NCBI GenBank assembly: GCA_016202565.1
Contig: JACQOK010000349.1
Location: forward strand, 1-44,244
Direction of reading: 5' to 3'
DNA length: 44,244 nucleotides
Origin: Betaproteobacteria bacterium
Lineage (GTDB): Bacteria > Pseudomonadota > Gammaproteobacteria > Burkholderiales > SG8-41
The first letter of the stretch is position 1, and each line of letters starts with the position of its first letter. Below the pieces are notes generated by a model. That model saw only the letters and a program-made list of their open reading frames with translations, was not told where the DNA came from and did not search any database. The position numbers were made by a program, and so were the translations under genes. Below, one piece after another: positions 140-37,087 of the stretch.

Positions 140-148
140 GCGGCTTTT

Positions 149-11165: not shown

Positions 11166-12065
11166 TCAGGCGGTTTGCAACCGGACGACCGGCGGGCAGG
11201 GGTTCAATCGCGGGCGAAGATAGGCGCCGGCCCAGTTCCCCACTTCTTTCAGCAACCGCCGCCGGTGCAGCTCCAGTGGATACGTGTGCTCGGCCTGCGG
11301 CCAGTAGATCTCGGTGCAGAACTGCGGATAGCCCTCGAGACCCAGGACCCCGCCCAACTGCCCCGCCCGGTTGTAGTAGGGAAGCGCGTATTGCGTGAAC
11401 ACGGACAGCACTCGTCCCTGCCGCTCCCGTATCGACAGGAACGCCGCCCGGACCTGCTCTCGCGTCGGAAGATTCCTGAGTGCCAGATAGTCCAGCGGCT
11501 CATCGTCTTCCTTCCTTTTTCTGCGCGGGGTCGTCAGAGCCTTGAGGCGACGCTTGAGCCACGAGACGTACAGATCCGGGTTCGTATACTTGAGGACCAG
11601 CGCCCGCGCCTTGAATCCATCGTCCCTGAAGCAGATGGGATCGAGCAGAACCATGCCGACGATCCGGGGATCCCCGGGCGTCAACTTGATCGCGTTGTCC
11701 GCGCCCGAGCAGAGCCCCGCCAGCACGAGTGGCAGTTGACCGAGGCGCGATTCGAGAACGCTCACGATCTCCTTGTAGTCCGCCGTCACGGATTCCTGAT
11801 TCGTCAGGCCGGGGCGGCGCGGACTGTCACCGATGCCCGCCAGATCGACGCGCAGCGAGCTGAAACCCATCCGGGCGAGCTGCCGGGAGAGTCGAACGTG
11901 CAGCCTGAACGTACCGACCCGGTGCAGCGCGCCGGCGCTCAGGAGCACGAACACCGGCAGCGCGTGCGCGGTGCGGGCCGGCGTCGCAGGGAGGGTCAGA
12001 ATCCCGAATAGCCGCCCGCCTTCCCCGAACTGCAGAGGTTCTTCCGTCAGGACAGGGTCAGACAT
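11166..12065 (-). CDS. Alpha/beta-fold protein, 'hydrolase 1' type, with Cys at the nucleophile elbow; last gene of the PKS/NRPS operon
   Basis: Track ORF 11166..12845 is trimmed to ATG 12065 (MSDPVLTEEPLQFGEGGRLFGILTLP). Motifs are LRVDLAGIGDS and LVLAGLCSGADNAI (G-L-C-S-G). It resembles the product of 40817..41770 (LRLDLEGFGDS, VGGLCGAAI). It overlaps the upstream gene by 19 nt. Confidence 0.8.
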   Translation of the reverse strand: MSDPVLTEEPLQFGEGGRLFGILTLPATPARTAHALPVFVLLSAGALHRVGTFRLHVRLSRQLARMGFSSLRVDLAGIGDSPRRPGLTNQESVTADYKEIVSVLESRLGQLPLVLAGLCSGADNAIKLTPGDPRIVGMVLLDPICFRDDGFKARALVLKYTNPDLYVSWLKRRLKALTTPRRKRKEDDEPLDYLALRNLPTREQVRAAFLSIRERQGRVLSVFTQYALPYYNRAGQLGGVLGLEGYPQFCTEIYWPQAEHTYPLELHRRRLLKEVGNWAGAYLRPRLNPCPPVVRLQTA

Positions 12066-12802
12066 GCGGTGAGCCGCTCCAATAACGGCTGGGGCAATAT
12101 GGGCCCCTCCAGGTCCGTCTCCCAGCCATACGCGACCCCGGCCACGCCTTGGAAGACGCCCGGCGCAGGTAGATCGGCCGCGGGCGAAGTGCTGACAACG
12201 TGCAGCTTGTGCTTCGGCACGCTCGAATAGGTGCTCGCATCGAGCGAACGGAATCCCTCCACCATGGATGCGGAGAGCCAGTAGCCGCCGTACTCGTGCA
12301 TCGCCTCGCGGCGCTCGCGGTGACTCAAGTACCGATTCCGCTCGAATATGGACGCCTGAACGCGTTTCAGCACGCGCAGGTACTCCGCTCCGTCCGGAAC
12401 CGGATCCCACAGGACCAACCGCTGGACGTCGTCGCGAGCGCCCGCGTACTTGCAGACAAGCAGGGCACCGGCCCGCACTCCGAGCAGCTGCACGCTGGTG
12501 CATCCGGAGAGCTCCCGGCCTTCCTGAACCGCGAGTGCGATGTCCTCCAGCCAGTCGGAGATCCCAACCTCGGCGAGCTCGCCGAACGAGTCTCCGGTGC
12601 CGCGATAATCGAAGCGGAGGACGTGCTGGCCTTTCCCGGAGAGGACAATGGCGAGTTCTCTCAGCACAAGATGCGTGCGCATATATTCCGAGCACAGCGG
12701 CGGGCAGATTATCGTGAGCAGCCTGCCGCTCCCTGCAGCCGGCGGGTGGTACGTCGCGAAGCGCTGTGCGCTGCCCGCTCCGAAGAAGAAGGCTTCGATC
12801 AT
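12047..12802 (-). CDS. Alpha/beta-fold protein, 'hydrolase 2' type, with Arg in place of the nucleophile; translationally coupled to the NRPS
   Basis: Track ORF 12047..13234 is trimmed to ATG 12802 (MIEAFFFGAG...). ATGA overlaps the NRPS stop (12799-12802). Motifs are VLRFDYRGTGDS, LLGVRAGALL and LVLWDPVPDGAEYL. At 251 aa it has the same length and motif order as the product of 40065..40820. Confidence 0.8.
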   Translation of the reverse strand: MIEAFFFGAGSAQRFATYHPPAAGSGRLLTIICPPLCSEYMRTHLVLRELAIVLSGKGQHVLRFDYRGTGDSFGELAEVGISDWLEDIALAVQEGRELSGCTSVQLLGVRAGALLVCKYAGARDDVQRLVLWDPVPDGAEYLRVLKRVQASIFERNRYLSHRERREAMHEYGGYWLSASMVEGFRSLDASTYSSVPKHKLHVVSTSPAADLPAPGVFQGVAGVAYGWETDLEGPILPQPLLERLTACLTLS

Positions 12803-15800
12803 GGGGCCGGCTCTCCGCTCCGGCATCGCGCCGCGATATCGGCAAGCGTTTCCTGGAACAGCACGACGAATTCGAGTCTTTTGCCGAGCTTCTCCTCGAT
12901 CAGTCGCAGCGCCCTCAGACCGAGCAGCGAGTAGCCGCCCATCTCGAAGAACTTGTCGCTGCGGACGATCGGCCGGGCCGGCTGAATCAGCTTCGTCCAG
13001 ATCTCGGCGATCGCCGCCTCGACCGGATCCGCTGGAGCGTCGTGCTGACCGACGCGGCTCTCGGTGACGACGGGCGTCGGAAGACGGCGCCGATCGATCT
13101 TGCCGTTTGGCGTCAGCGGAAACTCGTCCACCGCGAGAAAGTACTGCGGAATCATGTATTCGGGAAGGCGGGCACGCAGATGCTTGCGCAGGCCGATCGC
13201 GGGCAGGACGCCGCCCCTGGCCGGGACGCAGCACGCGACGATGCGCATGTCATTCGGCTTTACGGTCCACAAGTGCACGGCCGCCTGGTGCACGTCGGGA
13301 TGGCCGGCCAGTACCGTCTCGATCTCGCCCAGCTCGATGCGAAAACCCCGCACCTTGACTTGATCATCGAGGCGGCCGAGATGCTCCAGCGTGCCGTCAT
13401 TGCACCAGCGCGCGCGATCGCCGGTGCGGTAGAGCGTGGCGCCCGGTGCAGTGCTGAACGGATCCGGGATGAAGCGCTCGGCGGTGAGCTCGGGCCGGTT
13501 CCAGTAGCCGAGCGCGACTCCGTCACCTCCGATGTACAGCTCGCCGGGGACGCCGATGGGAGAGAGGTTCTTCCGCGCATCCAGGATCCGGACACTGGTG
13601 TTGGCTATGGGCCTGCCGATGGTGATCCCGCCGGAGGGATCGGTAATCCGCGCGCAGGTGGACCACACCGTCGTCTCGGTGGGACCGTACAGGTTCCACA
13701 GCTCGACGCCGCGCGCGATCAACTGATCGGCCAGGTCTTTGGGCAACGCTTCTCCGCCGACCAGGGCCTTGAACGGGACCCTGCCGGTCCAGCCTGTCTC
13801 GACGAGCATGCGCCAGGTGACGGGCGTGGCCTGCATAACGGTCGCCCGGTGCTGGTCGAGGAGCGCGCTCAGGGCACGGCCATCGGTGGCTTCATCGGGG
13901 GCCGCAATGACGACGGTCGCGCCGAGCGTGACCGGCAGCAGGAGCTCGAGCACGGCGATATCGAAGGACAGCGTGGTGACCGCGACCAGGACGTCGTTCT
14001 CCGTAAGGCCGGGCTCGCGCGCCATGCTCGTCAGGAAGTTGACGACGGCGCGGTGCGGGACCACGACCCCCTTGGGCCTCCCGGTGGAACCGGAGGTGTA
14101 GATGACATAGGCCGGATCCTCGGGACGCGCGGCAGGCGCATCGCCGGGCAGGGGGATGACGGCCGCGGAATCGATGGCCGCGGCGGCGGCATCCAGCAAC
14201 AGTTGACGCTCGCCAGGCATGTCGAGGGTGCCGGACAGGGCGGTGGTGGACACGAGCAGGGCAAGCCCGGCGTCCTCCGCCATGAAGCGCAGGCGCTCCG
14301 TCGGGAAAGAGGGATCGAGCGGAACGTAGGCGGCGCCGGCCTTGAGTATGCCGAGCATGGCGGCGACCATGTCGGCGCCCCGCTCGACGCACAGCCCGAC
14401 GCGCTGGCCGCGGCCGATGCCGCGCGCGCGCAACAGCCTCGAAACGCGGGCAGCGCGCGCGCCCAGCGCGGCATAGGAGAGCGCCGCCGCGCCCACCGTG
14501 AGGGCGGTGCGGGACGGCGCGCGCTTCACCTGCGCCTCGAACAGCTCGTGGACCAGCGCGCCGGCCGGATAGTCGGCCCCCGTCTGGTTCCACTCGTCAA
14601 GGACCAGGCTTCTTTCGACCACCGACAGTAGCGGCAGCTCCGATATCTTCTGCCACGGATTCCTGGCGAAGACGCGCAGCAATTGCTGGAAATTCGACGA
14701 CAGCCTTTCCACGGTCCGGGCCTCGAAGAGATCGGTGCAGTACTCGAAGCGTCCCACGTAGCCCTGATCCTCCTCGTAGAGATGAAGGCCCAGGTCGAAC
14801 TGGGCGAACTTCAGGTCGAAATGGAAGCTGCTGACTTGCAGGTCTCCGATTTTCGGCGCGCTCCCCGCCAGCACCTGCAATATGACCTGGAACACGGGGT
14901 TGCGGCTTGGATCCCTCTCGAGCTTCAGGTGCTTCGCCAGCGCCTCGAAAGACACGCCGCTGTTCGAGAAGGCGTTGAGCGTCGTGTCGCGGGTCCGCCG
15001 CAGCAATTCGATGAAGGCAGGATCGCCCGAGAGATCGCAGCGCAAGGCCGCCATGTTGAGGAAGTTCCCGATCAGCGGGTCGAGCTCGCCCTGTGTTCTC
15101 GCCGCGACCGGGGTGCCGATGACGATATCGTCCGCGCCGGAATAGCGCTGCAACAGCACCTGAAAGGCCGCCAAGAGCGTCATGAAGACGGTGCATCCTT
15201 CCCGCGCGCCGAGGGTCTTGAGATCCTCCGCCACCGGCGCGGGGATGCCGAAAAAGACATTCGAGCCGTTGAAGGACTGGAGGGCCGGCCGCGGTCTGTC
15301 ACCGGGCAGCTCCAGCACGGGAAGCGTGCCGGCGAGCTGCCGCTGCCAGAACTCGATCTGATCGGCGCAGGCCGCCTCACCGGCCATGCGTTGCCGCTGC
15401 CACACGGCGAAGTCGGCATACTGCACGGCCAGTTCGAGCGGGCGGGCATCGGCACCGCCGGTGTATGCGCGATAGAACGCATCCAGCTCGCGCATGAAGA
15501 CCCCGAAGGACAACCCATCCGCCACGATGTGATGAAAGTTGAGAATCAGGACGTGCTCGACGGCGCCCAGCCTGAACACCGACACCCGGATCAGCGGAAG
15601 GCGGGAGAGGTCGAACGATCTCAGGGATTCTTCCGAAGCCAGGGCCTGCAGCTTGTTCTCGCGCTCCTCGCCGCGCAGGTGGTCCAGCGGCGTGACCTTG
15701 ACCCGGATCTCCAGGTCGGGGTGGATGCGTTGCACGGGCTCGCCGTCGCGGACGACGAACGTGGTCCTCAGTCCTTCGTGCCGCTTGATGATTTCATTGA

Positions 15801-16047
15801 CGCTGCGCTCCAGCGCCGGCACGTCGAGCGGGCCCCGCAGCCGGTATCCGTTCGGCAGGTTGTACGCGGGATTGCCCGGCGTCATTTGGTCGATCACCCA
15901 GATCTGCCGCTGGGAAAACGACAGGGGAACGGCGTCGTGATTCGGGCGCTTGGGTATCGCGCAGTCGTTCACTCGCTTGCGGGTGGCCGCCCCCAACCGC
16001 TGCTGCAGCAGCGCTCTTTTCTCAGGGGAAAGGTCTGACATGCTCAT
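12799..16047 (-). CDS. NRPS module C-A-T (A-domain code Gly-like); no TE, R or terminal C domain
   Basis: The C domain has SFSQRQIW and HHIVADGLS (HHxxxDG). The A domain has LSYAAL, YVIYTSGSTGRPKGV, FDIAVLE, NLYGPTETTV, GELYIGGDGVALGY, YRTGDRA and PNGKIDR. The T domain has FFEMGGYSLL. The 10-residue code read by eye is DILQLGLVWK. Confidence 0.95.
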   Translation of the reverse strand: MSMSDLSPEKRALLQQRLGAATRKRVNDCAIPKRPNHDAVPLSFSQRQIWVIDQMTPGNPAYNLPNGYRLRGPLDVPALERSVNEIIKRHEGLRTTFVVRDGEPVQRIHPDLEIRVKVTPLDHLRGEERENKLQALASEESLRSFDLSRLPLIRVSVFRLGAVEHVLILNFHHIVADGLSFGVFMRELDAFYRAYTGGADARPLELAVQYADFAVWQRQRMAGEAACADQIEFWQRQLAGTLPVLELPGDRPRPALQSFNGSNVFFGIPAPVAEDLKTLGAREGCTVFMTLLAAFQVLLQRYSGADDIVIGTPVAARTQGELDPLIGNFLNMAALRCDLSGDPAFIELLRRTRDTTLNAFSNSGVSFEALAKHLKLERDPSRNPVFQVILQVLAGSAPKIGDLQVSSFHFDLKFAQFDLGLHLYEEDQGYVGRFEYCTDLFEARTVERLSSNFQQLLRVFARNPWQKISELPLLSVVERSLVLDEWNQTGADYPAGALVHELFEAQVKRAPSRTALTVGAAALSYAALGARAARVSRLLRARGIGRGQRVGLCVERGADMVAAMLGILKAGAAYVPLDPSFPTERLRFMAEDAGLALLVSTTALSGTLDMPGERQLLLDAAAAAIDSAAVIPLPGDAPAARPEDPAYVIYTSGSTGRPKGVVVPHRAVVNFLTSMAREPGLTENDVLVAVTTLSFDIAVLELLLPVTLGATVVIAAPDEATDGRALSALLDQHRATVMQATPVTWRMLVETGWTGRVPFKALVGGEALPKDLADQLIARGVELWNLYGPTETTVWSTCARITDPSGGITIGRPIANTSVRILDARKNLSPIGVPGELYIGGDGVALGYWNRPELTAERFIPDPFSTAPGATLYRTGDRARWCNDGTLEHLGRLDDQVKVRGFRIELGEIETVLAGHPDVHQAAVHLWTVKPNDMRIVACCVPARGGVLPAIGLRKHLRARLPEYMIPQYFLAVDEFPLTPNGKIDRRRLPTPVVTESRVGQHDAPADPVEAAIAEIWTKLIQPARPIVRSDKFFEMGGYSLLGLRALRLIEEKLGKRLEFVVLFQETLADIAARCRSGEPAP

Positions 16048-16082
16048 GAAGAAAAGGCGATTCTCGGCGGGGGGCGGGGCCG

Positions 16083-19000
16083 TTACTCTTGAGAAACGAG
16101 CCGTTGCGCCTGGTCATCGGTCATGCTTTCGATTTCCGCGAGGATTCTTGCCTGGATGACCGACGCCAGTTGCGCGATCGTGGGCGCCTCGAAGAACTCC
16201 CTGAGGCTGAACCTGATTTCATACAACGCTCTCACCTTCGACACGATCTGCATGGCCAGCAGCGAGTGCCCACCGAGCCGGGAAAACTGCTCGTGAACGC
16301 CGATCTGCTCGAGGCCCAAGACGATTCTCCAGATCTCCGCTACCGCTGCCTCGACTTCGTTGGTGGGGGCATCCGCCCCCTCCTGCACGGTGCCGCGGCG
16401 AGCGGGCATCGCGCGGCCCGTCCGCGCCAGCGACAGATACCGGTCGGGATCGACCGGCGCCCGGGATCGCGCCAGCACCTCCTGAAGATCCTCCGGACTG
16501 ACCAGGACCTGCTGCAGATCGGAGTTCAGTGCCCGTGCGAACGCCTCCACGCCGTCCCGGGTGGCGATCGCCTTGTCGAGGGCGGCCTTCTTCCAGCCCT
16601 CCAGCCCGGGCGCCGTTTCCAGCTCCGCCAGCTGTCCGATCTCCTTCCAGCCGGGCCAGTTGATGGTCAGCGTGTGAAACCTGTTCCGCGCATTGGCGGC
16701 ATAGGTGCAGGCATCGAGGAAGCAGTTGGCGGCGCTGTAGTCGCAGTGCGCGTACGGAGTATCGATTGCCGTCATCGACGAGAACAGAACCAGGAAATCC
16801 AGCGGCACGTCCTCGAGCAGGTCGAGCAGGATCATCGTGCCGTCGACCTTCGGGGCGAGCACGCTATCCGCAGTGGCCCTGGTCTTGCTCTGGATCAACT
16901 CCGCTTTGACGATGCCGGCGGCGTGGATGATGCCGTTGATCGCCCCGTAGCGCTCCAGTGCGTTCTCGAGAACGCTCTGCATCTGTGCCCGGTTGGAGAC
17001 CTCGGCCACCTGCACCTCGACTTGCCCTCCGGAGGCCTCGATTTCCATCAGCGCGTCGATCGTCCTCAGCACGGACTGCGGAGCCTCGCGCGTCAGCGAC
17101 AACTGCTTCCACACCGATTTATCGGGGAACGCCGACTTCTTGGTGAGAACGATCCGGGGCTGGCAGGTCTGCGCCAGATATTTCGAGATCGACAACCCGA
17201 TCCCTCCGGTACCCCCGGTAATGACGTAGACCCCGTTGCGTCTCAAACGACCGAGGCCGGACGGGTGCTCCGACGCCTCCGACGAGAGGGCCTTCGGCAG
17301 GGCGACGCGTTCGAAGTCCCGCCGCCAGCGATAGCGCCCGCGGTAGGCGACCACCTCGCCGCGGCACGGGTCGGCGAACTCGGAAACGATCCTGGCGATC
17401 ACTTCGCCGGGCAAGCTGTCGATGGGCTGTTCATCGGGCAGATCGATGTTGAAGCACTTGACGTTGGGGAACTCCTTGGGGATGACTCCGCAGGGTCCGA
17501 GCACCGTTGCCATTTCAGGAGCGAGGCGTTCTTCGCCGGTGACTTCATGCACCCGGTTGGAAATAATGCCGATGCTGACTGGAACGGAAACGTTCAGCTC
17601 ACCGAGTGCCTGCGCGATGTGCAGGAGGCTGTAGAAGCCGAATTCCTGGCGGGCCGCGCAGGAGTAATCGGCGTGCTCCCGGTCATCGCGGATGAGGCTC
17701 CCCAGATGGATGATGTTGATGGCCTTTGGCGCGGCGCCCACCGCGAGCACCTCGAACAGCTTCAGGTAGTTGTCGATGCCCGCCGGATTCAGCTCGAACG
17801 AACCATCCCCGCACTGCGCGAAGCGGTCTCCAAACCGGACGAAAGCAGCCGCGAGTCGAAGGCCGTCAAGGTGCGCTTTGACCTGACCCCCTCCGCCGTA
17901 ACGGTCGGCAAAAATCAGCCAGAAGGCGTCATCCCGGGGGCGGCGCGGTGCGCCGAAAGGCGGCTCGCGCTTCCATGCCGGAACATAGAACCACTCGTCG
18001 AAGCCCCGCATCCCCGATGTCTGGTCGTGCTCTTGCCTCTCGTCTGCCCCGGGGGGCGTGGTCTCCATCCAGTGGGTCTGTCTCGCGAAAGGATAGGTCG
18101 GCAACGGCACTCTGCGGCGGCGCCCGCCGGACGGAGCATTGTCCCAGTGGATTCCGACGCCCGCGAGCCACAGCCTGCCGATGGCGTGCCACAGGAACTC
18201 GACATCGGACTGGTTCTCGTAGTCGTGCCTGATCGAGGATACCGCCAGCGGATCGCCGCCATTGCACCGGTCGGGATGCTGCATGGCGAGTACCGCCAGC
18301 GTCCGGCCCGGCCCCGCTTCCAGGAGAATGGGATTCGTGAAGCGCCAGAGCTCGTGCAGAGCGTCGCTGAACCGGGCCGTCCGCGTGGCGTGCAGGGCCC
18401 AGTAAGCGGGATCGGCGGCTTCGCTTCGCGTAATCCAGGTGCCGGTGACGTTGGAGATGTACGGAATGGCAGGCGCGTTGAGGCGGACCTTGCCCACCTC
18501 CTTTTCGAACGGCTCCACGATCGGATCGAGCATGCGCGAGTGAAAGGCGTGAGCGTTCTGAACGTGCCGGCAGAGGATGCTCTTCGCATTCAGCGTCTTC
18601 TCGAAATCGGCTACGGCGGCGGCCGGTCCGGCCACCACGCACAGGCTCGGGCCGTTGATCAGGGAGATGGACAGATCCCCGGGCAGCAGCGGAAGCAACT
18701 CGGCTTCCGGCAACGTGACGGCGAGCATGGCTCCCTGGGGCAGTGCGTTGACCAGCCGTGCCCGCGTTGCGACGAGCCGCAACGCATCCTCCAGCGATAG
18801 AACGCCGGCCACGCACGCCGCCACGTACTCGCCCATGCTGTGACCGACGATGGCATCAGGGGTGATGCCGAGCGATTGCCAGAGACGCGCCATGGCATAC
18901 TCGACCGTGAATAGCGCCGGCTGGGCTACGAGCGTCCGATTCAGGTTCGCGGCCTCCCGGCCCTCCGGTGCATCGGCGCCCCGCCCGAGCATTTTTTTCA

Positions 19001-20771: not shown

Positions 20772-20779
20772 CGCAGGTG

Positions 20780-22408: not shown

Positions 22409-22422
22409 GGGGTCGGTGTCGG

Positions 22423-23577: not shown

Positions 23578-23598
23578 GAGAGCCGTCCGATCCTCGAC

Positions 23599-23862
23599 TC
23601 AAGCGGCCGAGTGGCCGTTTTTTCTCAGGACGAAGGCCGCCGTCGCGTTGAGCGACTTGAAATTCTCCATGTCGAGGTCGTCCATTCCCACTTCGATGCC
23701 GAAAGCTTTCTCGATGAACGTCATCAACTGGACGGCGAACAGGGAATTGACGATGCCCGATCCGAAGAGATCGTCGTCGTCATCCAGCTTCGCGATGGCG
23801 ATCGAGCCCAGTATGAAAGCCCTGACCGTATCCTTGATACCGCTTGCCTGTTCGGGACTCAT
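23599..23862 (-). CDS. Free-standing acyl carrier protein (87 aa)
   Basis: This is the C-terminal 87 codons of track ORF 23599..24888, starting MSPEQASGIKDTV. The candidate Ppant serine lies in LFGSGIVNSLFAVQLMTFIEK. Its ATG (23862-23860) overlaps the TGA of the upstream dehydrogenase (ATGA). Confidence 0.8.
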   Translation of the reverse strand: MSPEQASGIKDTVRAFILGSIAIAKLDDDDDLFGSGIVNSLFAVQLMTFIEKAFGIEVGMDDLDMENFKSLNATAAFVLRKNGHSAA

Positions 23863-24800: not shown

Positions 24801-24817
24801 TTCGCCGCTCCCTTCCT

Positions 24818-25678
24818 TCAACCTCTTCTGAACCACAACATGCCCATCTTCGCGGTCTCCGCGACCTGCTTCTCCAGCCTGAATCCATGCCGCCGCAAGT
24901 CTTCCTCTATTTCCCGTTCCTTGCCGTCATGGTATTCGATGATGATCCGGCCTATTATCGAGAAGGTGGGCGCGCTGATGCCCGCCAGGATGTCGTACTC
25001 CGATCCCTCGCAGTCCATTTTCAGCAGATCGATACGAGAGATGCTTTCCCTGCTGACAATATCGTTCAAAGAGATGGTAACTACCGATTCACGCTCGTCG
25101 TTGTCCGCATTTCCGTAGGCGATGCGATTCTGTGGACTGGCGGCTTTCGGGATCGTGACGACTTCGTTCGATCTGGAGGTGACGGCGTGGTGGTAGGGAA
25201 CGATTGTGTCCTGAAGATTGTTCCTTCTTATGTTTTCCAGGATGCAGCCACAGGCTTCGCGGTTCGGTTCGAACGCATACACTTTTTTCGCGCCGCTGAA
25301 GGCCGCATAGAGCGAAAACAGTCCGATATTCGCTCCGATGTCGACCACCACCGTATCGGGGTCTACCGGGTAGACCCTGTCGCAAAACACCTGGAACAAA
25401 ACGACCAGGTCGAGCTGATGGCCGGAAAGAATCAATTCCCCGCCTTTCTTGAGACGAATGCGTTTCTCCGGCGGCGACGTGTGATTCAAATAGTGGCGTA
25501 TGAGCGGACCCGGCCTTTTGAATACGGGCCATGCTCTAGCGACAAGCGGCGCATTTCTGAGGACTTTTGGCAGAAGCGCCCGCGCTCTGGCAGGCAACAA
25601 TGCCTTGGCGATCCTGCGAGCAAACTCGATTGCATCGAAGTTTCCTGCGCTGACGCCGATTTTGCTGGGGGTTTCCAT
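24818..25678 (-). CDS. FkbM-family methyltransferase
   Basis: Motifs are VVDIGANIGLFSLYAA, VYAFEP and IDLLKMDCEGSEYDIL. The start is taken as METPSK (25678), 1 nt after the loader stop. ATG 25690 is an alternative. Confidence 0.85.
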   Translation of the reverse strand: METPSKIGVSAGNFDAIEFARRIAKALLPARARALLPKVLRNAPLVARAWPVFKRPGPLIRHYLNHTSPPEKRIRLKKGGELILSGHQLDLVVLFQVFCDRVYPVDPDTVVVDIGANIGLFSLYAAFSGAKKVYAFEPNREACGCILENIRRNNLQDTIVPYHHAVTSRSNEVVTIPKAASPQNRIAYGNADNDERESVVTISLNDIVSRESISRIDLLKMDCEGSEYDILAGISAPTFSIIGRIIIEYHDGKEREIEEDLRRHGFRLEKQVAETAKMGMLWFRRG

Positions 25679-25679
25679 G

Positions 25680-28600
25680 TCACGAAGCATGCTGCCGCAT
25701 TGCGTTATTGCGTCTGCGCTGACCCCGCAGGGCGGCCACTGCGGTCTCGGTGCCGGCGTGGGCATCCGCGGAGGCCGCGCCGAGTTTCGCGGCGAGCAGC
25801 CTCACCGTCGGGCACTCGAACAGGCTGACGATGGAGAGGGTTTGCTTCAGCTCCTTCTTGATCGTGGCAATCAGCTGGACCGCACGGAGCGAGGTTCCGC
25901 CCGCTTCGAAGAAATTGTCGTTGAGCCCGATTCGCGGACGGCCCAGGATCGTTCTCCAGATGTTGAGCAGTGCGGTTTCCAACGCGGTGCCCGACACCAC
26001 GTCCTGCCCCGCGCCGGGAAGTTCCTTTTCGAGCCGCCATTCCTCGATGGCTCGCGTAAGCCCCTCGATGGTGCACAGACGTTCCGCGAGCGTCTGCAGA
26101 CGCTCGGATAGAGCGGCGGCCCCGAAGCGCGACACGTGCGGCCGGGTGTCCGGCTCGGCGGCGGCAGGAGCCTCGCCGCCGCCGCCCCGCGCGGCCTCGT
26201 CGGGGGCGTATTCGACACCCGCCGCGCGTTCCGCCGCAACGATCCACGATCCGGCCGTTTCGTCCAGATCCTGCTCGCCGATGCTCTTGATGAATTCCCT
26301 GACCGGCGCGTTCTTCTCCGTGCGCCGATAGGCGAGCTCCACGTAACGCTTGTTTTCCCTGAGCGCACGCTGGCCAAGCTGGGACAGGATCGCGTGTTCC
26401 ACGCCTTTACCCAGCACCCGGCAGCTCAGTAGAAAGGTGTCCACCCGGTAGCGGTCGGCCCGGGTCTCGTAGAGCACGACGCCGACCAGCCCATAGTCGC
26501 CGAACCGGTCGGCCACGCAAACCGCCAGACCGGTCGTGTGTTCGCGCTTCAGGAAGTCTCCGATCTCCTTCTCCGAGCGCCGGACCGTCGTGAAGTTGAA
26601 TTGATTCGTCCTGAACGTCAGCTGCGAGACACGACCGAGCTGGTCCTCCGCCGCCTCCGCAATGTCGATGCGAAGCTCGAGTTCTTCGATGAACGCCTTC
26701 AAGGAACAGTTCTTCTCGCGGAACCGCTGCCGCTGCGCGTTCTCCTGATACATCCGGGTGCGCTTGCGATCTTCTTCGGTCGCATCCGAGTGGTCGAACG
26801 CCCACACGTGGTCCAGAAACGCCGGGAACGACTCGCTGTCACGCGGCAATTGCAGCGCCAGAACGCCCGGGCAGTTGATCCTGACATCCGCGCAATCGAC
26901 CGGGTTGTCGTCGATGAAGATGAAGCTGTCCAACCCGAGACCAAGCTCCGCCGCCAGCGATTTGACGTTGTCCGACTTGCTGTTCCAGTTGATGCGCCAC
27001 GAAACCAGGTGCTCGCGCTTCAGCACCATGTCGGACCGCTGGTCGAAGACTTCCAGCACATCGTCTTCGTTATTCTTGCTGCACAGGCACAGGAGCATGC
27101 CGGCGTTCATTTGCCCGATCATGAACTCCTGCAGCTTGCGATACGCCGCGCTGACTTCGACCCCGAGCGCACCGTCCTCCCCGCATACGCCCTTCCACAG
27201 CGTGTTGTCGCAGTCGAGCACGATCACCTTGAACGGTTTTCTCCTCAGGCTGAAGAGGGTCCGGAACAGCGCCGTCCCGATCGCGGCATAACACTCCGTG
27301 CTGTAGGGAATACGGCCCAGGCGATGACTATGCGGATCGTAGTAGTCCCTGACCGGATAGCGCTGCAGCGGCAAGGCCGAACCGATGGCGCGGACATTCG
27401 GCAGGGCGCCCGCCTCCGCCAGCAAGATCCGCTCGGCGTCGCTCAGCGCCGCCTTCAGATCGGCGTCGGCATCCACAGACGGAGTCGTCGGACAGACGCA
27501 CAGGATGAGCGGCGCGGTGGCCTGCTTCATGAACGCCGCGAGTGCGGTGCAGAAGTCCCGGACGTTTCGCTGCAGTCCGCCGGCGGCGCGGCGAGCTTGA
27601 CCCAGTCCGGCATGACCCAGTCCGGTATCGACGGCCGCCCCGTTCCGGGTTGCATACAGGTTGAACAATCCTGAATGCTCGAGCAATCGCTCGCGCTCGA
27701 CGGCGCAGCGGTAGCCCTTCGCCGCGAGCAGGCCTTCGATCCGCTTGACTGCCTCCCCGGCAGGATCGTGAATTTCCATTGCGATCTGGGCGATTTTCGG
27801 CCAGTCGCGCTCATCGATCCCGTTGATGATATCCAGCTCGCTCTTTTCCGCATCGATCTTGAGGAGATCGATCCTGTCGATCCGGTTCTCGCGGATGATC
27901 TCCGACACGGACGTCATGCGGCACTCGTGGGTGGTGCGGCGGAGCCGGTCGGCGGTCAACTCGGCAACATATTGCTCCACCGATTCCCCGTCAACCGATG
28001 TCTCGCTGTTCAGAGTGTTCCGCACGACCGCCTGAATGGCTTCGCGGTCCCTGGTTTCATCCGCGTAGAACCCCGAGAACACCGAAGACTTCTCATAGAA
28101 GGTCAAGGTCGCCGATTTGGACCGGTCCGACACGCCGACGTTTGCGGCCCGGACATTTGCTCCGTAGGCCTCGCAGTTGACCCTCAAGAGATCGTAAGCG
28201 GCCGGCGCGGGCTCGAAGGCGTAGATTTTCGGGTCCTTGCAGCGGCTCGTCACAAACAGGGAAAAAAGCCCGATGTTCGCCCCGATGTCCAGCACGGTGG
28301 CGCCGTCGTGCAGGCGGATGCCGTGCCTCAGGTAGCACTGATCCTCAAAGATTTCCCGGTAGAGATAGTCCGTTTCGTAGTGGTTCAAATGGGCGATTTC
28401 GAGTCCGTTGGGCAGAACATGTCTCGACCGGCCGCCGAAACATTGGTCCGCCCTTTCCCGGGTGAGCGTCATGCCCGCGTGCCGATCCGCCGCGGCCCAC
28501 TCCTCCAGGGCGAGCAGAATGACGTTGACTCCGTCGCGATTCCTGCGCAACGCGCTTTCGCCATCCAGCAGCTGCTGGAAGATCTGGTCGAAGGGGGCGA

Positions 28601-29618
28601 ATTCGAGGTGGAGCGGAGCGCTGAAATGCGCGCCCCAGAAGTTCAAGGCGTCCTCGATCGGCTCAACGGTGAAGTTCGAGGCGATGACGAGCCTTGTCGC
28701 CGCCGTCTTTCCGGCAGTGTCGGGGCGGTCGAGACAGGTGAATGCGACCCCCGCCAGTTCCAGATACCGCCTGCCCGAGTCGTCGAAGGCCCGAACGCTG
28801 CCGACAAAATTCTTTCGATCACCGTCGCCGTCCTGAACCAGGGTAGCGTGCGCCCACAGCGTATCAGGCAAATTGCCATCCGACAGCTCGGCTTTCTCGA
28901 TCGACTGCAGCACGAAGGTCCTGCCGTCCTCGATGAAGAAGGACCCGAGGAGTTGCGTCACGGAATCGAGCACGGTCGGATGCAAGCCAGCGGGTTCGGT
29001 TTCCCCGTGCTGCCGCGCCCCGGAAAGCAGCCCCAGGGATTGGCCGCCCATCCTCCAGACCGAGGAAATCCTTTGAAAGGCCGGCCCGTAGTGATTGCCG
29101 TTTTCGCGCAGCATCCGGTAGAAGCGCTCCGCGTCGATCGCGGCATGCGACTGCGCCCGGAAGGCCTCGATGGAAAACGCATCGGTGCCTGCCGCTGCGG
29201 CGAACGACGGGGGCTTGCGCTCGATCTCGAGCCGCGCGGCATACTGCCGCTCGGGTATCCCGGTGCTCCCTCGATCGACTTCCGCTTCATAGAACGTGTA
29301 TTCCACGCGTCCGCCGTCGTGATCCCTCGCCTCGACCCTCATGTCGATGTCTTCTGCCCCAAGAATGATGGGCCGGCGAAAGATCACGTTCCGCACCACG
29401 CCCGGAACGCGCCGAGCGAGCCTGTGATCCACGCGCCGCGCCATTTCGATGTAGAACGAACCGGGCAGAACGACCATGTCCTGAAAACCATGATCCGCCA
29501 GATAGGGCAACGAATGCAGGCCGACCCTGAATTCCGCGCAGGTCGCTCCCGGCCGATCCGTGGAGTGCATCACCGGCCCGATCATGATGGAGGGAGTTTC
29601 AGGCGTCGTCGTGCTCAT
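25680..29618 (-). CDS. Multidomain loading protein: PKS-type DH, FkbH N-lobe interrupted by an FkbM-type methyltransferase, HAD (FkbH) core, GNAT-like domain, carrier domain
   Basis: DH (about 29546-28734) has LADHGFQDMVVLP and LDSVTQ. FkbH N-lobe part 1 (about 28697-28485) has VIASNFTVEP..QIFQQLLD. MT (about 28421-27645) has VLDIGANIGLFSLF, IYAFEP and IDLLKIDAEKSE. FkbH N-lobe part 2 lies at about 27572-27234. HAD (about 27233-26784) has VLDCDNTLW, CSKNN and FIDDNP. The GNAT-like end (about 26696-26289) has FRTNQFNFT. The T domain (about 26006-25779) has FFEAGGTSL. Confidence 0.9.
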   Translation of the reverse strand: MSTTTPETPSIMIGPVMHSTDRPGATCAEFRVGLHSLPYLADHGFQDMVVLPGSFYIEMARRVDHRLARRVPGVVRNVIFRRPIILGAEDIDMRVEARDHDGGRVEYTFYEAEVDRGSTGIPERQYAARLEIERKPPSFAAAAGTDAFSIEAFRAQSHAAIDAERFYRMLRENGNHYGPAFQRISSVWRMGGQSLGLLSGARQHGETEPAGLHPTVLDSVTQLLGSFFIEDGRTFVLQSIEKAELSDGNLPDTLWAHATLVQDGDGDRKNFVGSVRAFDDSGRRYLELAGVAFTCLDRPDTAGKTAATRLVIASNFTVEPIEDALNFWGAHFSAPLHLEFAPFDQIFQQLLDGESALRRNRDGVNVILLALEEWAAADRHAGMTLTRERADQCFGGRSRHVLPNGLEIAHLNHYETDYLYREIFEDQCYLRHGIRLHDGATVLDIGANIGLFSLFVTSRCKDPKIYAFEPAPAAYDLLRVNCEAYGANVRAANVGVSDRSKSATLTFYEKSSVFSGFYADETRDREAIQAVVRNTLNSETSVDGESVEQYVAELTADRLRRTTHECRMTSVSEIIRENRIDRIDLLKIDAEKSELDIINGIDERDWPKIAQIAMEIHDPAGEAVKRIEGLLAAKGYRCAVERERLLEHSGLFNLYATRNGAAVDTGLGHAGLGQARRAAGGLQRNVRDFCTALAAFMKQATAPLILCVCPTTPSVDADADLKAALSDAERILLAEAGALPNVRAIGSALPLQRYPVRDYYDPHSHRLGRIPYSTECYAAIGTALFRTLFSLRRKPFKVIVLDCDNTLWKGVCGEDGALGVEVSAAYRKLQEFMIGQMNAGMLLCLCSKNNEDDVLEVFDQRSDMVLKREHLVSWRINWNSKSDNVKSLAAELGLGLDSFIFIDDNPVDCADVRINCPGVLALQLPRDSESFPAFLDHVWAFDHSDATEEDRKRTRMYQENAQRQRFREKNCSLKAFIEELELRIDIAEAAEDQLGRVSQLTFRTNQFNFTTVRRSEKEIGDFLKREHTTGLAVCVADRFGDYGLVGVVLYETRADRYRVDTFLLSCRVLGKGVEHAILSQLGQRALRENKRYVELAYRRTEKNAPVREFIKSIGEQDLDETAGSWIVAAERAAGVEYAPDEAARGGGGEAPAAAEPDTRPHVSRFGAAALSERLQTLAERLCTIEGLTRAIEEWRLEKELPGAGQDVVSGTALETALLNIWRTILGRPRIGLNDNFFEAGGTSLRAVQLIATIKKELKQTLSIVSLFECPTVRLLAAKLGAASADAHAGTETAVAALRGQRRRNNAMRQHAS

Positions 29619-30360
29619 TCATCGCGTCCGTCAGACGACGGCAGGGCAGCGAGCGCACGGTAATTCGCTCGGGGTCAGCCATTGGGCCGTGAACACGCTG
29701 TACGACGAGGGCGCCGGTCAGGCCAGGGCCGGGCACGAAGCCATGAAGCGCCCAGCCGCACCGGTCTCCCGGCGTGCTGTCAACGCGCAGGATGCAGGCG
29801 GGCATACCCGGAGCAAGGGAAACGTCGAAGCGACCAAGCCCATGGCTCAGGCCAGCGCCGAGCGCCTTGACGAAGGCCTCCTTGCGCGTCCAGCAGTTGA
29901 AGAACCCGAGCGGCCTGTCGCGCGGAGCGAGCGCGAGATACGCGGCGTTCTCCCGGGGGGAGAACGCGTGTGCTGCGATTTCGTCGGCGCCGGGGATCAC
30001 GCGCACAGCTTCGATGTCCACTCCGATCTCGCGTGCCGGCGAAAAGGCGTAAACGGCGACATCATCGCAGTGAGAGACGTTGAACTGCAGTCCGGAATGT
30101 GCCAAAGCTCCTCCGAGCGCAGGCTTGCCGCGCCGTCCGTACGTCAGCTCCACCGAGCCCGGCCGAACTCCCAGCCGCATCCCGAGCAACTGGCGCAGTC
30201 GCGCGCGCGCGACAGTAAATCGGCAGCGATCGCGATCCAATGCAAAGCGCCTCGCGCGCTCTCGCTCTTCCGCCGAAAGCAGGGCGGCCGACGCGCCGAC
30301 GGTATCGGGGCCTACGTCGATTCGGGTCACCACGACCTCGATTGCGCTGTCATCCGCCAT
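29599..30360 (-). CDS. Sfp-type 4'-phosphopantetheinyl transferase
   Basis: Motifs are RGKPAL, FNVSHC, IGVDIE and WTRKEAFVKALG. Its 3' end overlaps the loader start by 20 nt. Confidence 0.9.
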   Translation of the reverse strand: MADDSAIEVVVTRIDVGPDTVGASAALLSAEERERARRFALDRDRCRFTVARARLRQLLGMRLGVRPGSVELTYGRRGKPALGGALAHSGLQFNVSHCDDVAVYAFSPAREIGVDIEAVRVIPGADEIAAHAFSPRENAAYLALAPRDRPLGFFNCWTRKEAFVKALGAGLSHGLGRFDVSLAPGMPACILRVDSTPGDRCGWALHGFVPGPGLTGALVVQRVHGPMADPERITVRSLPCRRLTDAMNEHDDA

Positions 30361-37075: not shown

Positions 37076-37081
37076 AAGGAG
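37076..37081 (+). promoter_or_regulatory. Shine-Dalgarno AAGGAG for the ComA-like gene
   Basis: AAGGAG lies 6 nt upstream of ATG 37088, and the 222-nt non-coding gap 36866-37087 precedes it. Confidence 0.6.
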
Positions 37082-37087
37082 ACTCGC

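Follow-up and report, generated by a model that had tools for sequence, protein, structure and literature searches.

NRPS and PKS thioesterases (TEs) act in cis, as trans-acting TEII proteins or as tandem TE-TE domains. They belong to family PF00975, are placed after the last carrier and have an alpha/beta-hydrolase fold with a nucleophile-His-Asp triad. Trans-acting alpha/beta hydrolases that lie beside NRPS genes are often TEII. A Cys-His-Asp set on an alpha/beta fold is also the catalytic set-up of PHA synthases, and an alpha/beta enzyme with these three residues may also be a simple hydrolase. In Vibrio cholerae O1, the tetronate genes rfbK-O (ACP, ligase, acyltransferase) serve the carrier-dependent N-acylation of polysaccharide amino sugars. 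Among TEs, a Cys nucleophile is rare and is known in few enzymes, for example MacB-TE (PMC13288461). The zwittermicin A extender-unit subcluster makes hydroxymalonyl- and aminomalonyl-ACP with an FkbH protein (zmaN), ACPs (zmaD/H), a dehydrogenase (zmaG), acyl-CoA dehydrogenases (zmaE/I) and a seryl-AMP synthetase (zmaJ) (PMC6395733, PMC4207774). Here, we analysed a window of DNA that spans an entire contig (44,244 bp) from a Betaproteobacteria MAG (protein MBI4206770.1) and in which a PKS/NRPS line is followed by two alpha/beta-fold proteins, hyd2 and hyd1. Judged from sequence comparisons, these two proteins are probably the subunits of a module that releases chains from carrier-protein thioesters and would replace the thioesterase domain.

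The line occupies positions 11166-30360 of the minus strand and comprises 11 tightly coupled genes, of which the PPTase gene is the first and the genes of the 251-aa and 299-aa alpha/beta proteins, hyd2A and hyd1A, are the last. The features of the window are listed in Table 1; domain calls were made with Pfam and NCBIfam profiles and the scores were compared with curated cut-offs. Within the line there are ATGA overlaps at 12799-12802, where the start of hyd2A overlaps the NRPS stop, and at 23859-23862, and longer overlaps of 20 nt at 29599-29618 and of 19 nt at 12047-12065. The remaining intergenic gaps are 8-35 nt, that between the PKS and NRPS genes being 35 nt. A sequence-only reading of this DNA had given the same gene order and junctions, and ORF listing with translation reproduced every one of them. 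It had also reported no TE, reductase or terminal C domain, in agreement with our domain search, in which neither the line nor the next three ORFs downstream gave a Thioesterase, NAD_binding_4 or terminal Condensation match.

Table 1 Features of the window, with positions, strands and supporting profile matches (score versus cut-off, in bits, where two values are given).
Feature	Position	Strand	Evidence
hyd1A, 299-aa alpha/beta-fold protein, GLCSG	11166..12065	-	TIGR03100 best match, 63.6 vs 168.45
hyd2A, 251-aa alpha/beta-fold protein, GVRAG	12047..12802	-	TIGR03101 best match, 107.8 vs 202.75
Terminal NRPS module C-A-T, no TE/R/C	12799..16047	-	Condensation, AMP-binding, AMP-binding_C, PP-binding only
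Type I PKS module KS-AT-KR-ACP	16083..20771	-	Pfam; AT motifs GHSMG and HAFH
Free-standing A domain, ZmaJ-like, Ser-type code DVWHFSLVDK	20780..22408	-	AMP-binding, AMP-binding_C; TIGR01733, 450 bits
Acyl-CoA dehydrogenase (ACAD) family enzyme, ZmaI/ZmaE/FkbI-like	22423..23577	-	Acyl-CoA_dh_N/M/1
Discrete ACP, 87 aa, ZmaH-like	23599..23862	-	PP-binding; start overlaps preceding stop (ATGA)
3-hydroxyacyl-CoA dehydrogenase family enzyme, ZmaG/FkbK-like putative acyl-ACP dehydrogenase	23859..24836	-	3HCDH_N, 3HCDH
Free-standing FkbM-family methyltransferase	24818..25690	-	PF05050; TIGR01444, 108 vs 38
Loading protein, 1312 aa, DH-FkbM-type MT-FkbH-ACP	25680..29618	-	PKS_DH_N/PS-DH, Methyltransf_21, TIGR01686, PP-binding
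Sfp/HetI-type 4'-phosphopantetheinyl transferase (PPTase)	29599..30360	-	PF01648 (ACPS), PF22624
NadE-family ATP-pyrophosphatase	31115..32197	+	NF002048, 524 vs 313
AsnB-type amidotransferase	32167..34218	+	TIGR01536, 529 vs 267; TIGR03108, 432.3 vs 816.9
AMP-forming acyl ligase	34067..35737	+	TIGR03098, 468.5 vs 592.35
PGA_cap gene	35741..36865	+	PF09587
Phosphosulfolactate-synthase-like gene	37040..37918	+	TIGR03849, 144 vs 280
ATP-grasp gene, between ligase and hyd2B	37919..39199	+	
ComB-like gene	39200..39985	+	ComB models, ~78 vs 235
hyd2B, hyd2A paralog, GHRLG	40065..40820	+	TIGR03101, 98.5 vs 202.75
hyd1B, hyd1A paralog, GLCGA, C-terminal NHV His	40817..41770	+	TIGR03100, 68.9 vs 168.45
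Discrete ACP, 89 aa, beside second pair	41818..42087	-	PP-binding; weak NF052616 (ornithine-lipid ACP model)
GT4 glycosyltransferase	42338..43573	-	TIGR04063, 88.8 vs 442
Partial NDP-sugar dehydrogenase, runs off contig	43666..44244	-	TIGR03026, 119 bits, partial protein

The PPTase scores 137.6 bits against the HetI model NF042922, below its cut-off of 370. In the loading protein, the FkbH domain scores 305 bits against TIGR01686 (cut-off 146.65), its HAD DxDxT motif reads VLDCDNT and an ACP lies in cis (PP-binding at residues 1216-1277), which are the features of FkbH-type glyceryl-ACP loading; the starter on this protein is predicted to be glycerate-derived. The His of the DH domain was read in the translation, in LADHGFQDMVVLP. 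The specificity code of the free-standing A domain was read by hand via the A4 (FDxS) and A5 (NxYGPTE) anchors, and we take it to match the Ser code of EntF. Four adjacent genes at 20780-24836 correspond to an aminomalonyl-ACP pathway of the zmaG-H-I-J type, and the composition of this Ser-type cassette predicts that it makes aminomalonyl-ACP; the acyl-ACP dehydrogenase role of the 3HCDH enzyme would follow by analogy with the zwittermicin subcluster (PMC6395733). The window has the enzyme set of the zwittermicin A subcluster, namely 3HCDH, ACP, ACAD, a Ser-type free A domain and FkbH with its own ACP. However, it has a single ACAD and a single discrete ACP, and its FkbH is fused to DH and FkbM-type MT domains in a loading-module-like arrangement. 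The gene table of a related locus, L001, shows no separate Methyltransf_21 gene in the stretch from the loading-protein genes to the 3HCDH gene. Furthermore, the ACP-dependent ATs are of the GYSxG type (PMC4207774), while the AT motifs of the window, compared with Table 2 of the same paper, are of the malonyl-CoA type. The product prediction is uncertain, which we also count against the release module as described: the motifs indicate malonyl-CoA and not an ACP-borne extender, and both C3 units would have to enter the single module. The A domain of the terminal NRPS has the Gly-type code DILQVGLVWK, hand-read from the translation. The chain made by this line would be small and very polar. To a glycerate-derived C3 starter, possibly methylated or dehydrated, the single KS-AT-KR-ACP would join malonate and/or an aminomalonyl-type unit that derives from serine, and the C-A-T module would then add glycine.

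The AF2 models of hyd1A and hyd2A (pLDDT 72.9 and 83.7, respectively) both have an alpha/beta fold and match only generic esterases, with TM scores of 0.55-0.70, which we count against the release module. The Pfam matches of the hyd proteins are Hydrolase_4, Abhydrolase_1 and Abhydrolase_6, with Hydrolase_4/S33 the nearest and no match to the TE family PF00975. In place of the GxSxG serine of NRPS/PKS thioesterases, the elbows read GLCSG in hyd1 and GVRAG in hyd2, and in alignments with S33-type esterases of known structure (PDB), both the Cys of the one and the Arg of the other fall on the catalytic Ser. In the alignment of hyd1A, C119 is invariant and D142 and H260 are nearly so, and GxCxG is found in 86 of the 87 aligned hyd1 sequences (84 loci and the two window copies). 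In the clade of hyd1B, all 101 cluster representatives have the Cys, and the residues are C124, H291 and D256. The hyd1 His is nearly invariant, and the Asp is conserved at a position that differs between the two clades. An elbow nucleophile is thus accompanied by conserved His and Asp residues, and we propose that hyd1 is a Cys acyl-enzyme with a Cys-His-Asp triad. In hyd2, R110 is invariant in the A2 alignment, GxRxG is found in essentially all of the 84 loci and there is no conserved C-terminal His. We propose that hyd2 is a non-catalytic adaptor, although the Arg might instead serve some non-canonical activity. A TE resembles hyd1 in its triad, predicted in the case of hyd1. However, the hyd2/hyd1 system always needs two separate proteins, and since the carrier-proximal one has Arg for the nucleophile and no His, one subunit appears to serve catalysis and the other docking.

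The proposed triad on an alpha/beta fold resembles that of PHA synthases, and the predicted chain has free OH and NH2 groups. hyd1 might on these grounds be a PhaC-like polymerase or oligomerase, in which the acyl-Cys is attacked by the OH or NH2 of another carrier-bound unit to give an oligo-ester or oligo-amide. We give this very little credence: hyd1 does not match PhaC in either sequence or fold, neither phasin nor depolymerase genes were seen, and the ligase/ACP contexts of the pair lie amid sugar-modifying enzymes.

The pair is present in genomes and metagenomes of more than 10 phyla, and in 81 of 83 loci no more than 800 nt separate hyd2 from hyd1. Of the 83 loci, 72 have an NRPS/PKS gene within 1.5 kb. 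It was found in Beta-, Gamma- and Alphaproteobacteria, Acidobacteriota, Gemmatimonadota and Myxococcota, as well as in Acidimicrobiia, Bdellovibrionota, Elusimicrobia, Desulfoluna, Chitinophaga and others. A census of carriers covered 27 loci and searched up to 450 aa at the C-terminal end of the ORF immediately upstream of hyd2 (in Variovorax, the ORF upstream of the PPTase that precedes hyd2 was used). PP-binding was found at this end in 22 of 27 loci and Thioesterase in none. The one NAD_binding_4 match occurs alongside GDP_Man_Dehyd and Epimerase (one member each), which makes a sugar dehydratase more probable than an NRPS R domain. Some hyd2 relatives are fused behind an ACP as a TE is: a PKS KR-ACP is fused in frame to hyd2 at the TE position in P0139, P0218 and the gene 8313-10019 of L001. 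In P0166, with 61 member sequences, a TubC_N docking domain is fused to hyd2. Fusions of hyd2 to hyd1 occur in Azospirillum sp. B510 and Mycetohabitans rhizoxinica and make up 15 of 149 cluster representatives, with N-terminal GxRxG in all 15 and C-terminal GxCGG in 14. Three different systems load the carrier beside the pair, NRPS/PKS, ligase with ACP, and amino acid-[ACP] ligase with ACP, and the carrier thioester is the sole common element. Adjacency, carrier census and fusions together give strong comparative support to the earlier suggestion that the pair is an off-loading device, and the pair, which is found behind carriers in dozens of bacterial lineages and often near polysaccharide genes, is probably a widespread, uncharacterised device for unloading or transfer.

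Because the window is one MAG contig and the remaining genome is unseen, and because trans-acting alpha/beta hydrolases beside NRPS genes are often TEII, the pair might instead be an editing or housekeeping system that clears mis-primed carriers, release being left to an enzyme off the contig or to spontaneous chemistry. The census argues against this, since the ORF upstream of hyd2 has no TE in 27 of 27 loci, as do the fusions of hyd2 at the PKS TE position or to a docking domain and the missing PF00975 match. Moreover, the ACP-only cassettes served by the pair have nothing to edit, and we consider such a role very improbable.

We favour the release module because the line ends in a T domain without TE, R or C and with the NRPS stop overlapping the hyd2 start, because the pair stays together and close to NRPS/PKS genes in most of the 83 loci, because upstream ORFs mostly end in a carrier and in no case in a TE, with fusions at the TE position, and because the Cys of hyd1 and the Arg of hyd2 are conserved. 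In such a module, hyd2 (12047-12802) would be catalytically dead and would bind the terminal carrier domain, hyd1 (11166-12065) would accept the chain from the phosphopantetheine arm and bind it to its Cys as a thioester, and this acyl-enzyme would then hand it on to a nucleophile. Signal peptides and TM segments are absent from all four hyd proteins of the window, which places the reaction in the cytoplasm.

The chain would most likely be accepted in the cytoplasm by an amino or hydroxyl group on a sugar precursor of surface polysaccharide; water would be a simpler acceptor. Delivery to a polysaccharide is suggested by the gene neighbourhood. Variovorax paradoxus VAI-C has, all in one direction, the gene order NRPS-NRPS-PPTase-hyd2-hyd1-Wza-Wzc-priming transferase-GTs-Wzx. 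On soil contigs, GT4, Wzy_C and AsnB genes lie directly 3' of hyd1, and in the farmland locus L091 the pair is flanked by deacetylase/DegT/ACP on one side and by GT2/Wzy/Wzx on the other. Of the 142 ORFs in the first two places after hyd1, 11 are Wzx-type genes, more than of any other family. A glycan is thus a plausible acceptor. Counted against the release module as described are the low frequency of polysaccharide genes in these two places, only about a fifth of loci, and the flanks of the window's line, which hold a heparinase-like fragment, a methyltransferase, a weak GDSL-like ORF and two-component genes and no GTs.

The same two observations, together with the alpha/beta-hydrolase fold and the esterases that are its closest solved relatives, favour purely hydrolytic release in trans. 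The hyd1 Cys would then cleave the glycyl thioester with the help of hyd2 and free a small, diffusible polar acid (such as an osmolyte, a signal or a metal binder) that has no covalent link to polysaccharide. The sequence of hyd1 does not discriminate transfer from hydrolysis. However, a Cys nucleophile with a dedicated dead partner is elaborate for a task that ordinary TEII enzymes (PF00975, Ser) perform, the pair lies repeatedly inside Wzx/Wzy operons, and it occurs with cassettes of a single ACP and ligase, whose only plausible purpose is acyl donation; we regard plain hydrolysis as rather unlikely. A wider proposal, which we advance only tentatively, is that the pair is a general carrier-to-glycan acyltransferase. 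hyd2 would dock on any charged carrier, be it an NRPS T domain, a PKS ACP or a free ACP, and hyd1 would pass the acyl, aminoacyl or peptidyl-polyketide group to an NH2 or OH group on a sugar that is nucleotide- or undecaprenyl-linked. If this were true, many bacteria of more than 10 phyla would decorate their surface polysaccharides with NRPS/PKS-made groups, which would mean an undescribed class of glycoconjugates and an undescribed mode of assembly-line termination. A literature search of limited coverage found no paper on the hyd1/hyd2 proteins, in line with the earlier statement that no such system had been described.

The sequence-only reading had placed the line in an exosortase-type locus. 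TIGR03101 and TIGR03100, hypothetical equivalogs of unknown function, are indeed the best NCBIfam matches of all four hyd proteins and the best families for every relative tested, as that assignment would have it, but none of the four reaches the curated cut-offs and all lie well below them. Relatives score 85.6-122.9 bits against TIGR03101 (cut-off 202.75). For TIGR03100 (168.45), the top score among 10 relatives is 111.8 bits and the best of 101 cluster representatives reaches about 127 bits (E 5e-37). The accessory families associated with XrtA are the ligase TIGR03098, the amidotransferase TIGR03108 and the GTs TIGR04063/03087/03088, and the assignment of the window's genes to them did not hold, the scores for TIGR03098, TIGR03108 and TIGR04063 all falling short (Table 1). 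There are no exosortase or PEP-CTERM genes within the window, and Exosortase_EpsH (PF09721) is not listed in the gene tables covering 10 kb on either side in nine related metagenome or genome contigs. The exosortase label is unproven for this window. The likeness lies in the order of the two hydrolase types, 2 then 1, and in the similar company of the second pair (ACP, AMP-ligase and AsnB-type amidotransferase). The clade of the first pair is attached to NRPS/PKS lines, which the sequence-only reading does not name among the parts of the XrtA cassette.

That the same two protein types recur in the same order at 40065-41770 was borne out, since the like-for-like alignments are the best ones: hyd2A and hyd2B are 39% identical over 149 aa (E 2e-16) and hyd1A and hyd1B 31% over 133 aa (E 8e-12), while cross comparisons are weaker (E 4e-06 and 0.1). 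Both hyd2 proteins have 251 aa with the start codons chosen earlier, and the second pair is also joined by ATGA (40817-40820). A local duplication of the pair, which had been proposed, is contradicted by these identities of 31-39%, which cover half of the length, and by the large, widespread clade to which each pair belongs; the two pairs are old paralogs. The unit of PKS/NRPS line and pair is found again at 57-85% identity in other soil MAGs.

The neighbours of the second pair agree with the earlier description in the ligase, the AsnB-type amidotransferase, the 89-aa ACP and the GT4; GDP-mannose specificity of the dehydrogenase is not supported by its generic TIGR03026 match. The AMP-forming ligase likely loads the 89-aa ACP. 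As in V. cholerae O1, a discrete ACP and an adenylating ligase in a polysaccharide locus would supply a small polar acyl group, and we propose the logic of the tetronate genes by analogy for the second pair and, by extension, for the PKS/NRPS line. However, the V. cholerae acyltransferase is of a different kind and there is no NRPS/PKS, and transfer by hyd1 would be its counterpart here. NadE-family and AsnB-type genes also accompany hyd2/hyd1 in L087, from Steroidobacter, and in L088. Five genes of this region had not been listed before: the PGA_cap, phosphosulfolactate-synthase-like, ATP-grasp, ComB-like and NadE-like genes. The block 35741..39985, which sits between the ligase and hyd2B, is absent from L092, a relative with 72% identity.

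The assembly line comprises eleven co-directional minus-strand genes, as found by ORF listing, translation and Pfam/NCBIfam searches, in a window with a G+C content of about 64%. It ends with two alpha/beta-fold proteins, named hyd2A and hyd1A and referred to together as the pair. The gene layout proposed by the sequence-only reading was recovered at every junction, with its ATGA overlaps, overlaps of 19-20 nt and gaps of at most 35 nt. Its statement that a TE, a reductase and a terminal C domain are missing also holds, none being detected with Pfam/NCBIfam in the line or the three ORFs that follow it. A hidden TE at 8556-11112 was considered and rejected, since the ORFs of this stretch are a C-terminal heparinase II/III fragment, a methyltransferase of class I and a GDSL-like ORF below threshold.

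Genes of the assembly line and of the block preceding hyd2B, the first protein of the second pair
Feature	Coordinates	Strand	Basis or remark
PPTase	29599-30360	-	Pfam/NCBIfam
DH / FkbM-type MT / FkbH / ACP protein, 1312 aa	25680-29618	-	FkbH TIGR01686 305 bits vs cut-off 147
Free FkbM-family MT	24818-25690	-	Pfam/NCBIfam
3-Hydroxyacyl-CoA-dehydrogenase-family enzyme (3HCDH)	23859-24836	-	Pfam/NCBIfam
ACP, 87 aa	23599-23862	-	Pfam/NCBIfam
Acyl-CoA dehydrogenase (ACAD)	22423-23577	-	Pfam/NCBIfam
Free A domain	20780-22408	-	Pfam/NCBIfam
KS-AT-KR-ACP	16083-20771	-	Pfam/NCBIfam
C-A-T	12799-16047	-	Pfam/NCBIfam
Alpha/beta protein hyd2A, 251 aa	12047-12802	-	identical to NCBI MBI4206770.1
Alpha/beta protein hyd1A, 299 aa	11166-12065	-	Pfam/NCBIfam
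PGA_cap, phosphosulfolactate-synthase-like, ATP-grasp ligase, ComB-like phosphatase	35741-39985	+	between ligase and hyd2B

The 185-aa heparinase-like ORF at 10555-11112 (-), directly downstream of hyd1A, matches the C-terminal part of PF07940 only (positions 100-172 of 237), and a full-length heparinase II/III gene is present in the related locus L088, after GT4 and sugar-dehydrogenase genes. This ORF may be a rearrangement remnant at the edge of the PKS/NRPS block. At 23000-26000, where the genes of the free FkbM methyltransferase, the 3HCDH and the ACP are located, the G+C content is 0.58-0.61 against about 0.64 around it, and no free-standing FkbM methyltransferase gene is listed at the corresponding position of another related locus, L001; a later acquisition of this stretch is suggested. 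Scans for sigma-70 and sigma-54 promoters and for terminators gave nothing above chance in the divergent region 30361-31114 and downstream of hyd1A.

The specificity codes of the free A domain and of the A domain in the C-A-T module, read by hand from the A4 and A5 anchors, are DVWHFSLVDK and DILQVGLVWK, which we take, by reference codes, to be of serine and glycine type, respectively. The block 3HCDH-ACP-ACAD-A(Ser) matches the zwittermicin aminomalonyl-ACP route in enzyme composition, and the building-block genes of the window are a recognisable variant of the zwittermicin extender-unit subcluster. The aminomalonyl-ACP route uses the seryl-AMP synthetase ZmaJ, the ACP ZmaH, a shared acyl-ACP dehydrogenase and the acyl-CoA dehydrogenase ZmaI, while the FkbH enzyme ZmaN starts the hydroxymalonyl route (PMC6395733; PMC4207774). 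The DH-MT-FkbH-ACP protein looks like a glycerate-derived loading module. The AT of the PKS module has the motifs GHSMG and HAFH, which is the malonyl-CoA pattern, ACP-dependent ATs having GYSxG (PMC4207774, Table 2). This pattern is in conflict with an ACP-borne extender, and two C3 units carried on ACPs would have to share the single KS with malonate. In any of these schemes the predicted product on the T domain is a small polar acyl-glycine with hydroxy/amino/methoxy substituents, and not a lipid.

The same two protein types were found a second time, as hyd2B (40065-40820) and hyd1B (40817-41770), again with an ATGA junction, in agreement with the sequence-only reading. That reading assigned the proteins to the exosortase-A-associated hydrolases, and the assignment stands in part: TIGR03101 and TIGR03100 are the best match of the first and second protein, respectively, in both pairs, but the curated cut-offs are missed. 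Scores are 107.8 (hyd2A) and 98.5 (hyd2B) against 202.75 for TIGR03101, and 63.6 (hyd1A) and 68.9 (hyd1B) against 168.45 for TIGR03100. Since all scores lie below the cut-offs, the four proteins are best regarded as relatives of this function-unknown pair, and not as members by NCBI's criterion. No bona fide TIGR03100/TIGR03101 member at or above cut-off was found among 10 relatives, 101 cluster representatives retrieved with the related B-type protein P0330 and plasmid tblastn hits; the best score among the relatives and representatives is about 127 bits. The ligase, AsnB and GT4 of the window are all under the cut-offs of the XrtA-associated families, and no exosortase was detected in the window or in nine annotated neighbourhoods of ±10 kb.

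Duplication of the pair, proposed earlier, is contradicted as a recent local event by identities of just 39% between hyd2A and hyd2B (over 149 aa) and 31% between hyd1A and hyd1B (over 133 aa), in the N-terminal half, and by their placement in distinct clades. The two pairs are old paralogs, each with its own large clade. Searches with hyd1A gave 472 matches, the top 120 of which are at 64-76% identity and come from soil metagenomes; hyd2A gave 635 and hyd1B 96. A full scan with the B-type P0330 returned 8,610 clusters (50% identity) at E <= 1e-3 and 2,987 at E <= 1e-10. The hydrolase queries have weak, recurrent matches to NF058544 (SglT, an alpha/beta hydrolase and type IV pili motility protein of Myxococcus), and the pair family is especially common in loci of Myxococcota, where hyd2 and hyd1 are divergently transcribed.

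The hyd1 alignment, scanned once against GTDB species genomes, yielded 80 loci from many phyla, the closest, at 71% identity, in an Alcaligenaceae MAG. The window proteins were compared by tblastn with these and with four metagenome loci, and the next two counts are over 83 loci; gene calls in the loci are simple ORF calls. A hyd2 gene lies within 800 nt of hyd1 in 81 of the 83, co-directional in 52 and divergent in 29. For 72 of the 83, an NRPS/PKS gene was found no more than 1.5 kb away, a count that describes the NRPS-linked clade with which the scan was seeded and not all relatives; contig ends truncate several of the exceptions. Other Betaproteobacteria MAGs contain the entire FkbH/aminomalonyl/KS/C-A-T/hyd2/hyd1 line at 57-85% identity, and Acidobacteria and Hyphomicrobium MAGs have related lines. 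The C-terminal part (up to 450 aa) of the ORF ending just before hyd2, or, in Variovorax, before an intervening PPTase, was searched in 27 loci: PP-binding was found in 22 and AMP-binding_C in 21, Thioesterase in none, and no NRPS R domain was found. The pair is the conserved terminal element of a line without a release domain in cis.

Cultured carriers of the pair include Variovorax paradoxus VAI-C (INQ48_42255-42275), Azospirillum sp. B510, Mycetohabitans rhizoxinica HKI 454, Steroidobacter sp. S1-65 and Desulfoluna spongiiphila AA1. Three settings of the pair can be distinguished. The first is the NRPS/PKS line. The second consists of ligase and ACP cassettes, with or without AsnB and a NadE-like gene, inside Wzx/Wzy loci (Steroidobacter sp. 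S1-65 L087, and L088, L091 and L092). The third is a cassette of ACP, acyl-CoA dehydrogenase, amino acid-[ACP] ligase, DUF1839 and GH2 in Azospirillum and Mycetohabitans. The element common to all three is a charged carrier protein.

Several proteins join these components in one chain. In the related proteins P0139 and P0218 and in the L001 gene 8313-10019, a PKS KR-ACP C-terminus runs in frame into hyd2, which occupies the TE position, and in P0166 (61 member sequences) a TubC_N docking domain is followed by hyd2. Azospirillum sp. B510 AZL_RS30860 (592 aa) has a TIGR03101 match at residues 41-151 and a TIGR03100 match at 307-558, with the motifs GQRQG and GLCAG, and Mycetohabitans rhizoxinica has a similar hyd2-hyd1 fusion of 616 aa. 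Such fusions make up 15 of 149 cluster representatives, with the N-terminal Arg motif in all 15 and the C-terminal Cys motif in 14. Gene order, the ACP-hyd2 fusions and the docking-domain fusions place hyd2 as the carrier-proximal partner, and the hyd2-hyd1 fusions indicate that the two act together. The lineage of L001 has two hyd2 per hyd1, one following the ACP of the PKS and the other the T domain of the NRPS, which fits carrier-specific adaptors sharing one catalytic subunit.

Within L001 (ERZ25039588 contig_2684, a long-read assembly carrying frameshifts), the order at 4536-15598 is a KS-AT-KR-ACP-hyd2 fusion, hyd1, C, A, T and a second hyd2. The two fusion loci, L085:19176-20954 (Azospirillum sp. 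B510 pAB510e) and L089:14131-15981 (Mycetohabitans rhizoxinica HKI 454 pBRH01), share a conserved cassette in the order ACP, acyl-CoA dehydrogenase, aaRS-like amino acid-[ACP] ligase, DUF1839, GH2/beta-mannosidase and fused hyd2-hyd1, which may give a function to orphan aminoacyl-carrier-protein ligases.

The nucleophile elbow of hyd1 is GxCxG, a motif that 86 of 87 sequences aligned from the 84 loci and the window contain; its Cys is invariant in the A1 alignment (C119) and in the 101 representatives. The His (D/N-H-T, H260) is nearly invariant, and the conserved Asp is located in an LLDP motif in the A clade (hyd2A/hyd1A type) and at the canonical post-beta7 position in the B clade (hyd2B/hyd1B type). 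In hyd2 the elbow is GxRxG, found in nearly all loci, with R110 invariant, and no conserved C-terminal His was found in the alignments. Profile alignments place both the Cys and the Arg on the GxSxG catalytic Ser of solved S33-type esterases. Residue conservation points to a complete Cys-based triad in hyd1 and not in hyd2. AF2 models have alpha/beta folds (hyd1A, pLDDT 72.9 and pTM 0.76; hyd2A, pLDDT 83.7 and pTM 0.85) with generic esterase or alpha/beta-hydrolase neighbours only, at TM 0.55-0.70; LuxD and the CurM TE rank far down the hyd2A list. Signal peptides and TM segments are absent from all four proteins.

We propose that hyd2 is a pseudoenzyme adaptor, whose Arg could hold the phosphopantetheine phosphate, and that hyd1 would form a thioester acyl-enzyme and hand the chain to a nucleophile in the cytoplasm. 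That the pair is a release module with such a division of labour, with a sugar as the likelier acceptor, seems to us reasonably probable. A glycan acceptor taken alone is a tentative proposal, less likely than not, and plain hydrolysis of the chain by the pair is only slightly less probable; smaller weight is given to an editing role and to a PhaC-like oligomerase. The proposed release module resembles trans-acting or split thioesterases in its working, but lies outside the Thioesterase family; it would belong to the known release of assembly-line chains by alpha/beta-fold enzymes. The N-acyl amino acid synthases of Craig and Brady were dismissed as a parallel, a different enzyme being concerned. 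In the literature searched, which had most subscription journals outside its coverage, we found no description of a two-protein Cys/Arg release design and nothing on "exosortase A system-associated" hydrolases; Haft 2006 mentions neither hydrolase nor ligase nor ACP.

What an assembly line produces depends on chain release, and a line that lacks a TE is regarded by genome-mining tools as incomplete or as unpredictable; here, in no fewer than 72 of the loci sampled, TE-less carriers are followed by a conserved module of two proteins. Should this module serve in release, it would account for the termination of a large set of "orphan" NRPS/PKS clusters and would offer a functional entry to the "hydrolase 1/2" genes of polysaccharide loci, which have long lacked annotation. 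The pairing of a Cys enzyme with an Arg pseudoenzyme would be unusual enzymology. Acylation of a glycan would, if proven, be categorically new; a sugar acceptor would tie secondary-metabolite machinery to surface polysaccharide chemistry, with a bearing on biofilm matrix properties, floc formation, phage and immune recognition and EPS engineering. The presence of the pair in cultured strains makes the question directly testable.

Delivery to a polysaccharide or cell-surface acceptor had been suggested from the window, and other loci bear on it. Variovorax paradoxus VAI-C has a co-directional series of two NRPS genes, PPTase, hyd2, hyd1, a Wza-type export protein and a Wzc-type tyrosine autokinase, followed by a priming sugar transferase, GDP-fucose synthase, GTs and a Wzx-type protein. 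Soil contigs have GT4, Wzy_C, PMT_2 and AsnB directly after hyd1. In L091 the pair is flanked by polysaccharide deacetylases, a DegT aminotransferase and an ACP and, on the opposite side, by GT2, Wzy_C and Wzx; N-acylation of a newly formed amino sugar would lead one to expect such surroundings. Of the families in the two ORFs that follow hyd1, counted over 75 loci, the Wzx-type ones rank first (11 ORFs). The association of the pair with polysaccharide genes is real but far from universal.

The AsnB-type amidotransferase, AMP-forming ligase, 89-aa ACP and GT4 reported beside the second pair are present, together with a NadE-family enzyme (Pfam/NCBIfam); the dehydrogenase reported as GDP-mannose dehydrogenase is assigned here, more broadly, as a partial NDP-sugar dehydrogenase. 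The PGA_cap, phosphosulfolactate-synthase-like (TIGR03849, 144 bits against a cut-off of 280), ATP-grasp and ComB-like genes had been overlooked. The 72%-identical relative L092 has a methyltransferase in place of this block, and G+C dips to 0.59 at 35-37 kb of the window. The four genes may form an inserted block that alters the acyl unit loaded on the 89-aa ACP, perhaps to an acid derived from sulfolactate.

A NarL/GacA-type response regulator, a receiver-HisKA_3 hybrid kinase and a large PAS-rich hybrid histidine kinase flank the cluster, at 6186-8130 (-) and 138-3449 (+), and are candidate regulators of it. The N-terminus of the receiver-HisKA_3 kinase resembles the EPS regulator EpsF, at 157 bits where the cut-off is 900, and a NarL-type regulator is also present in L088. 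A GlgC homolog of 334 aa at 4844-5848 (-) matches positions 6-313 of a 408-position model, so that its C-terminal domain seems to be missing, and its end overlaps the convergent glgA (3352-4920, +) by 77 nt. Either the gene is truncated or the sequence is mis-assembled here.
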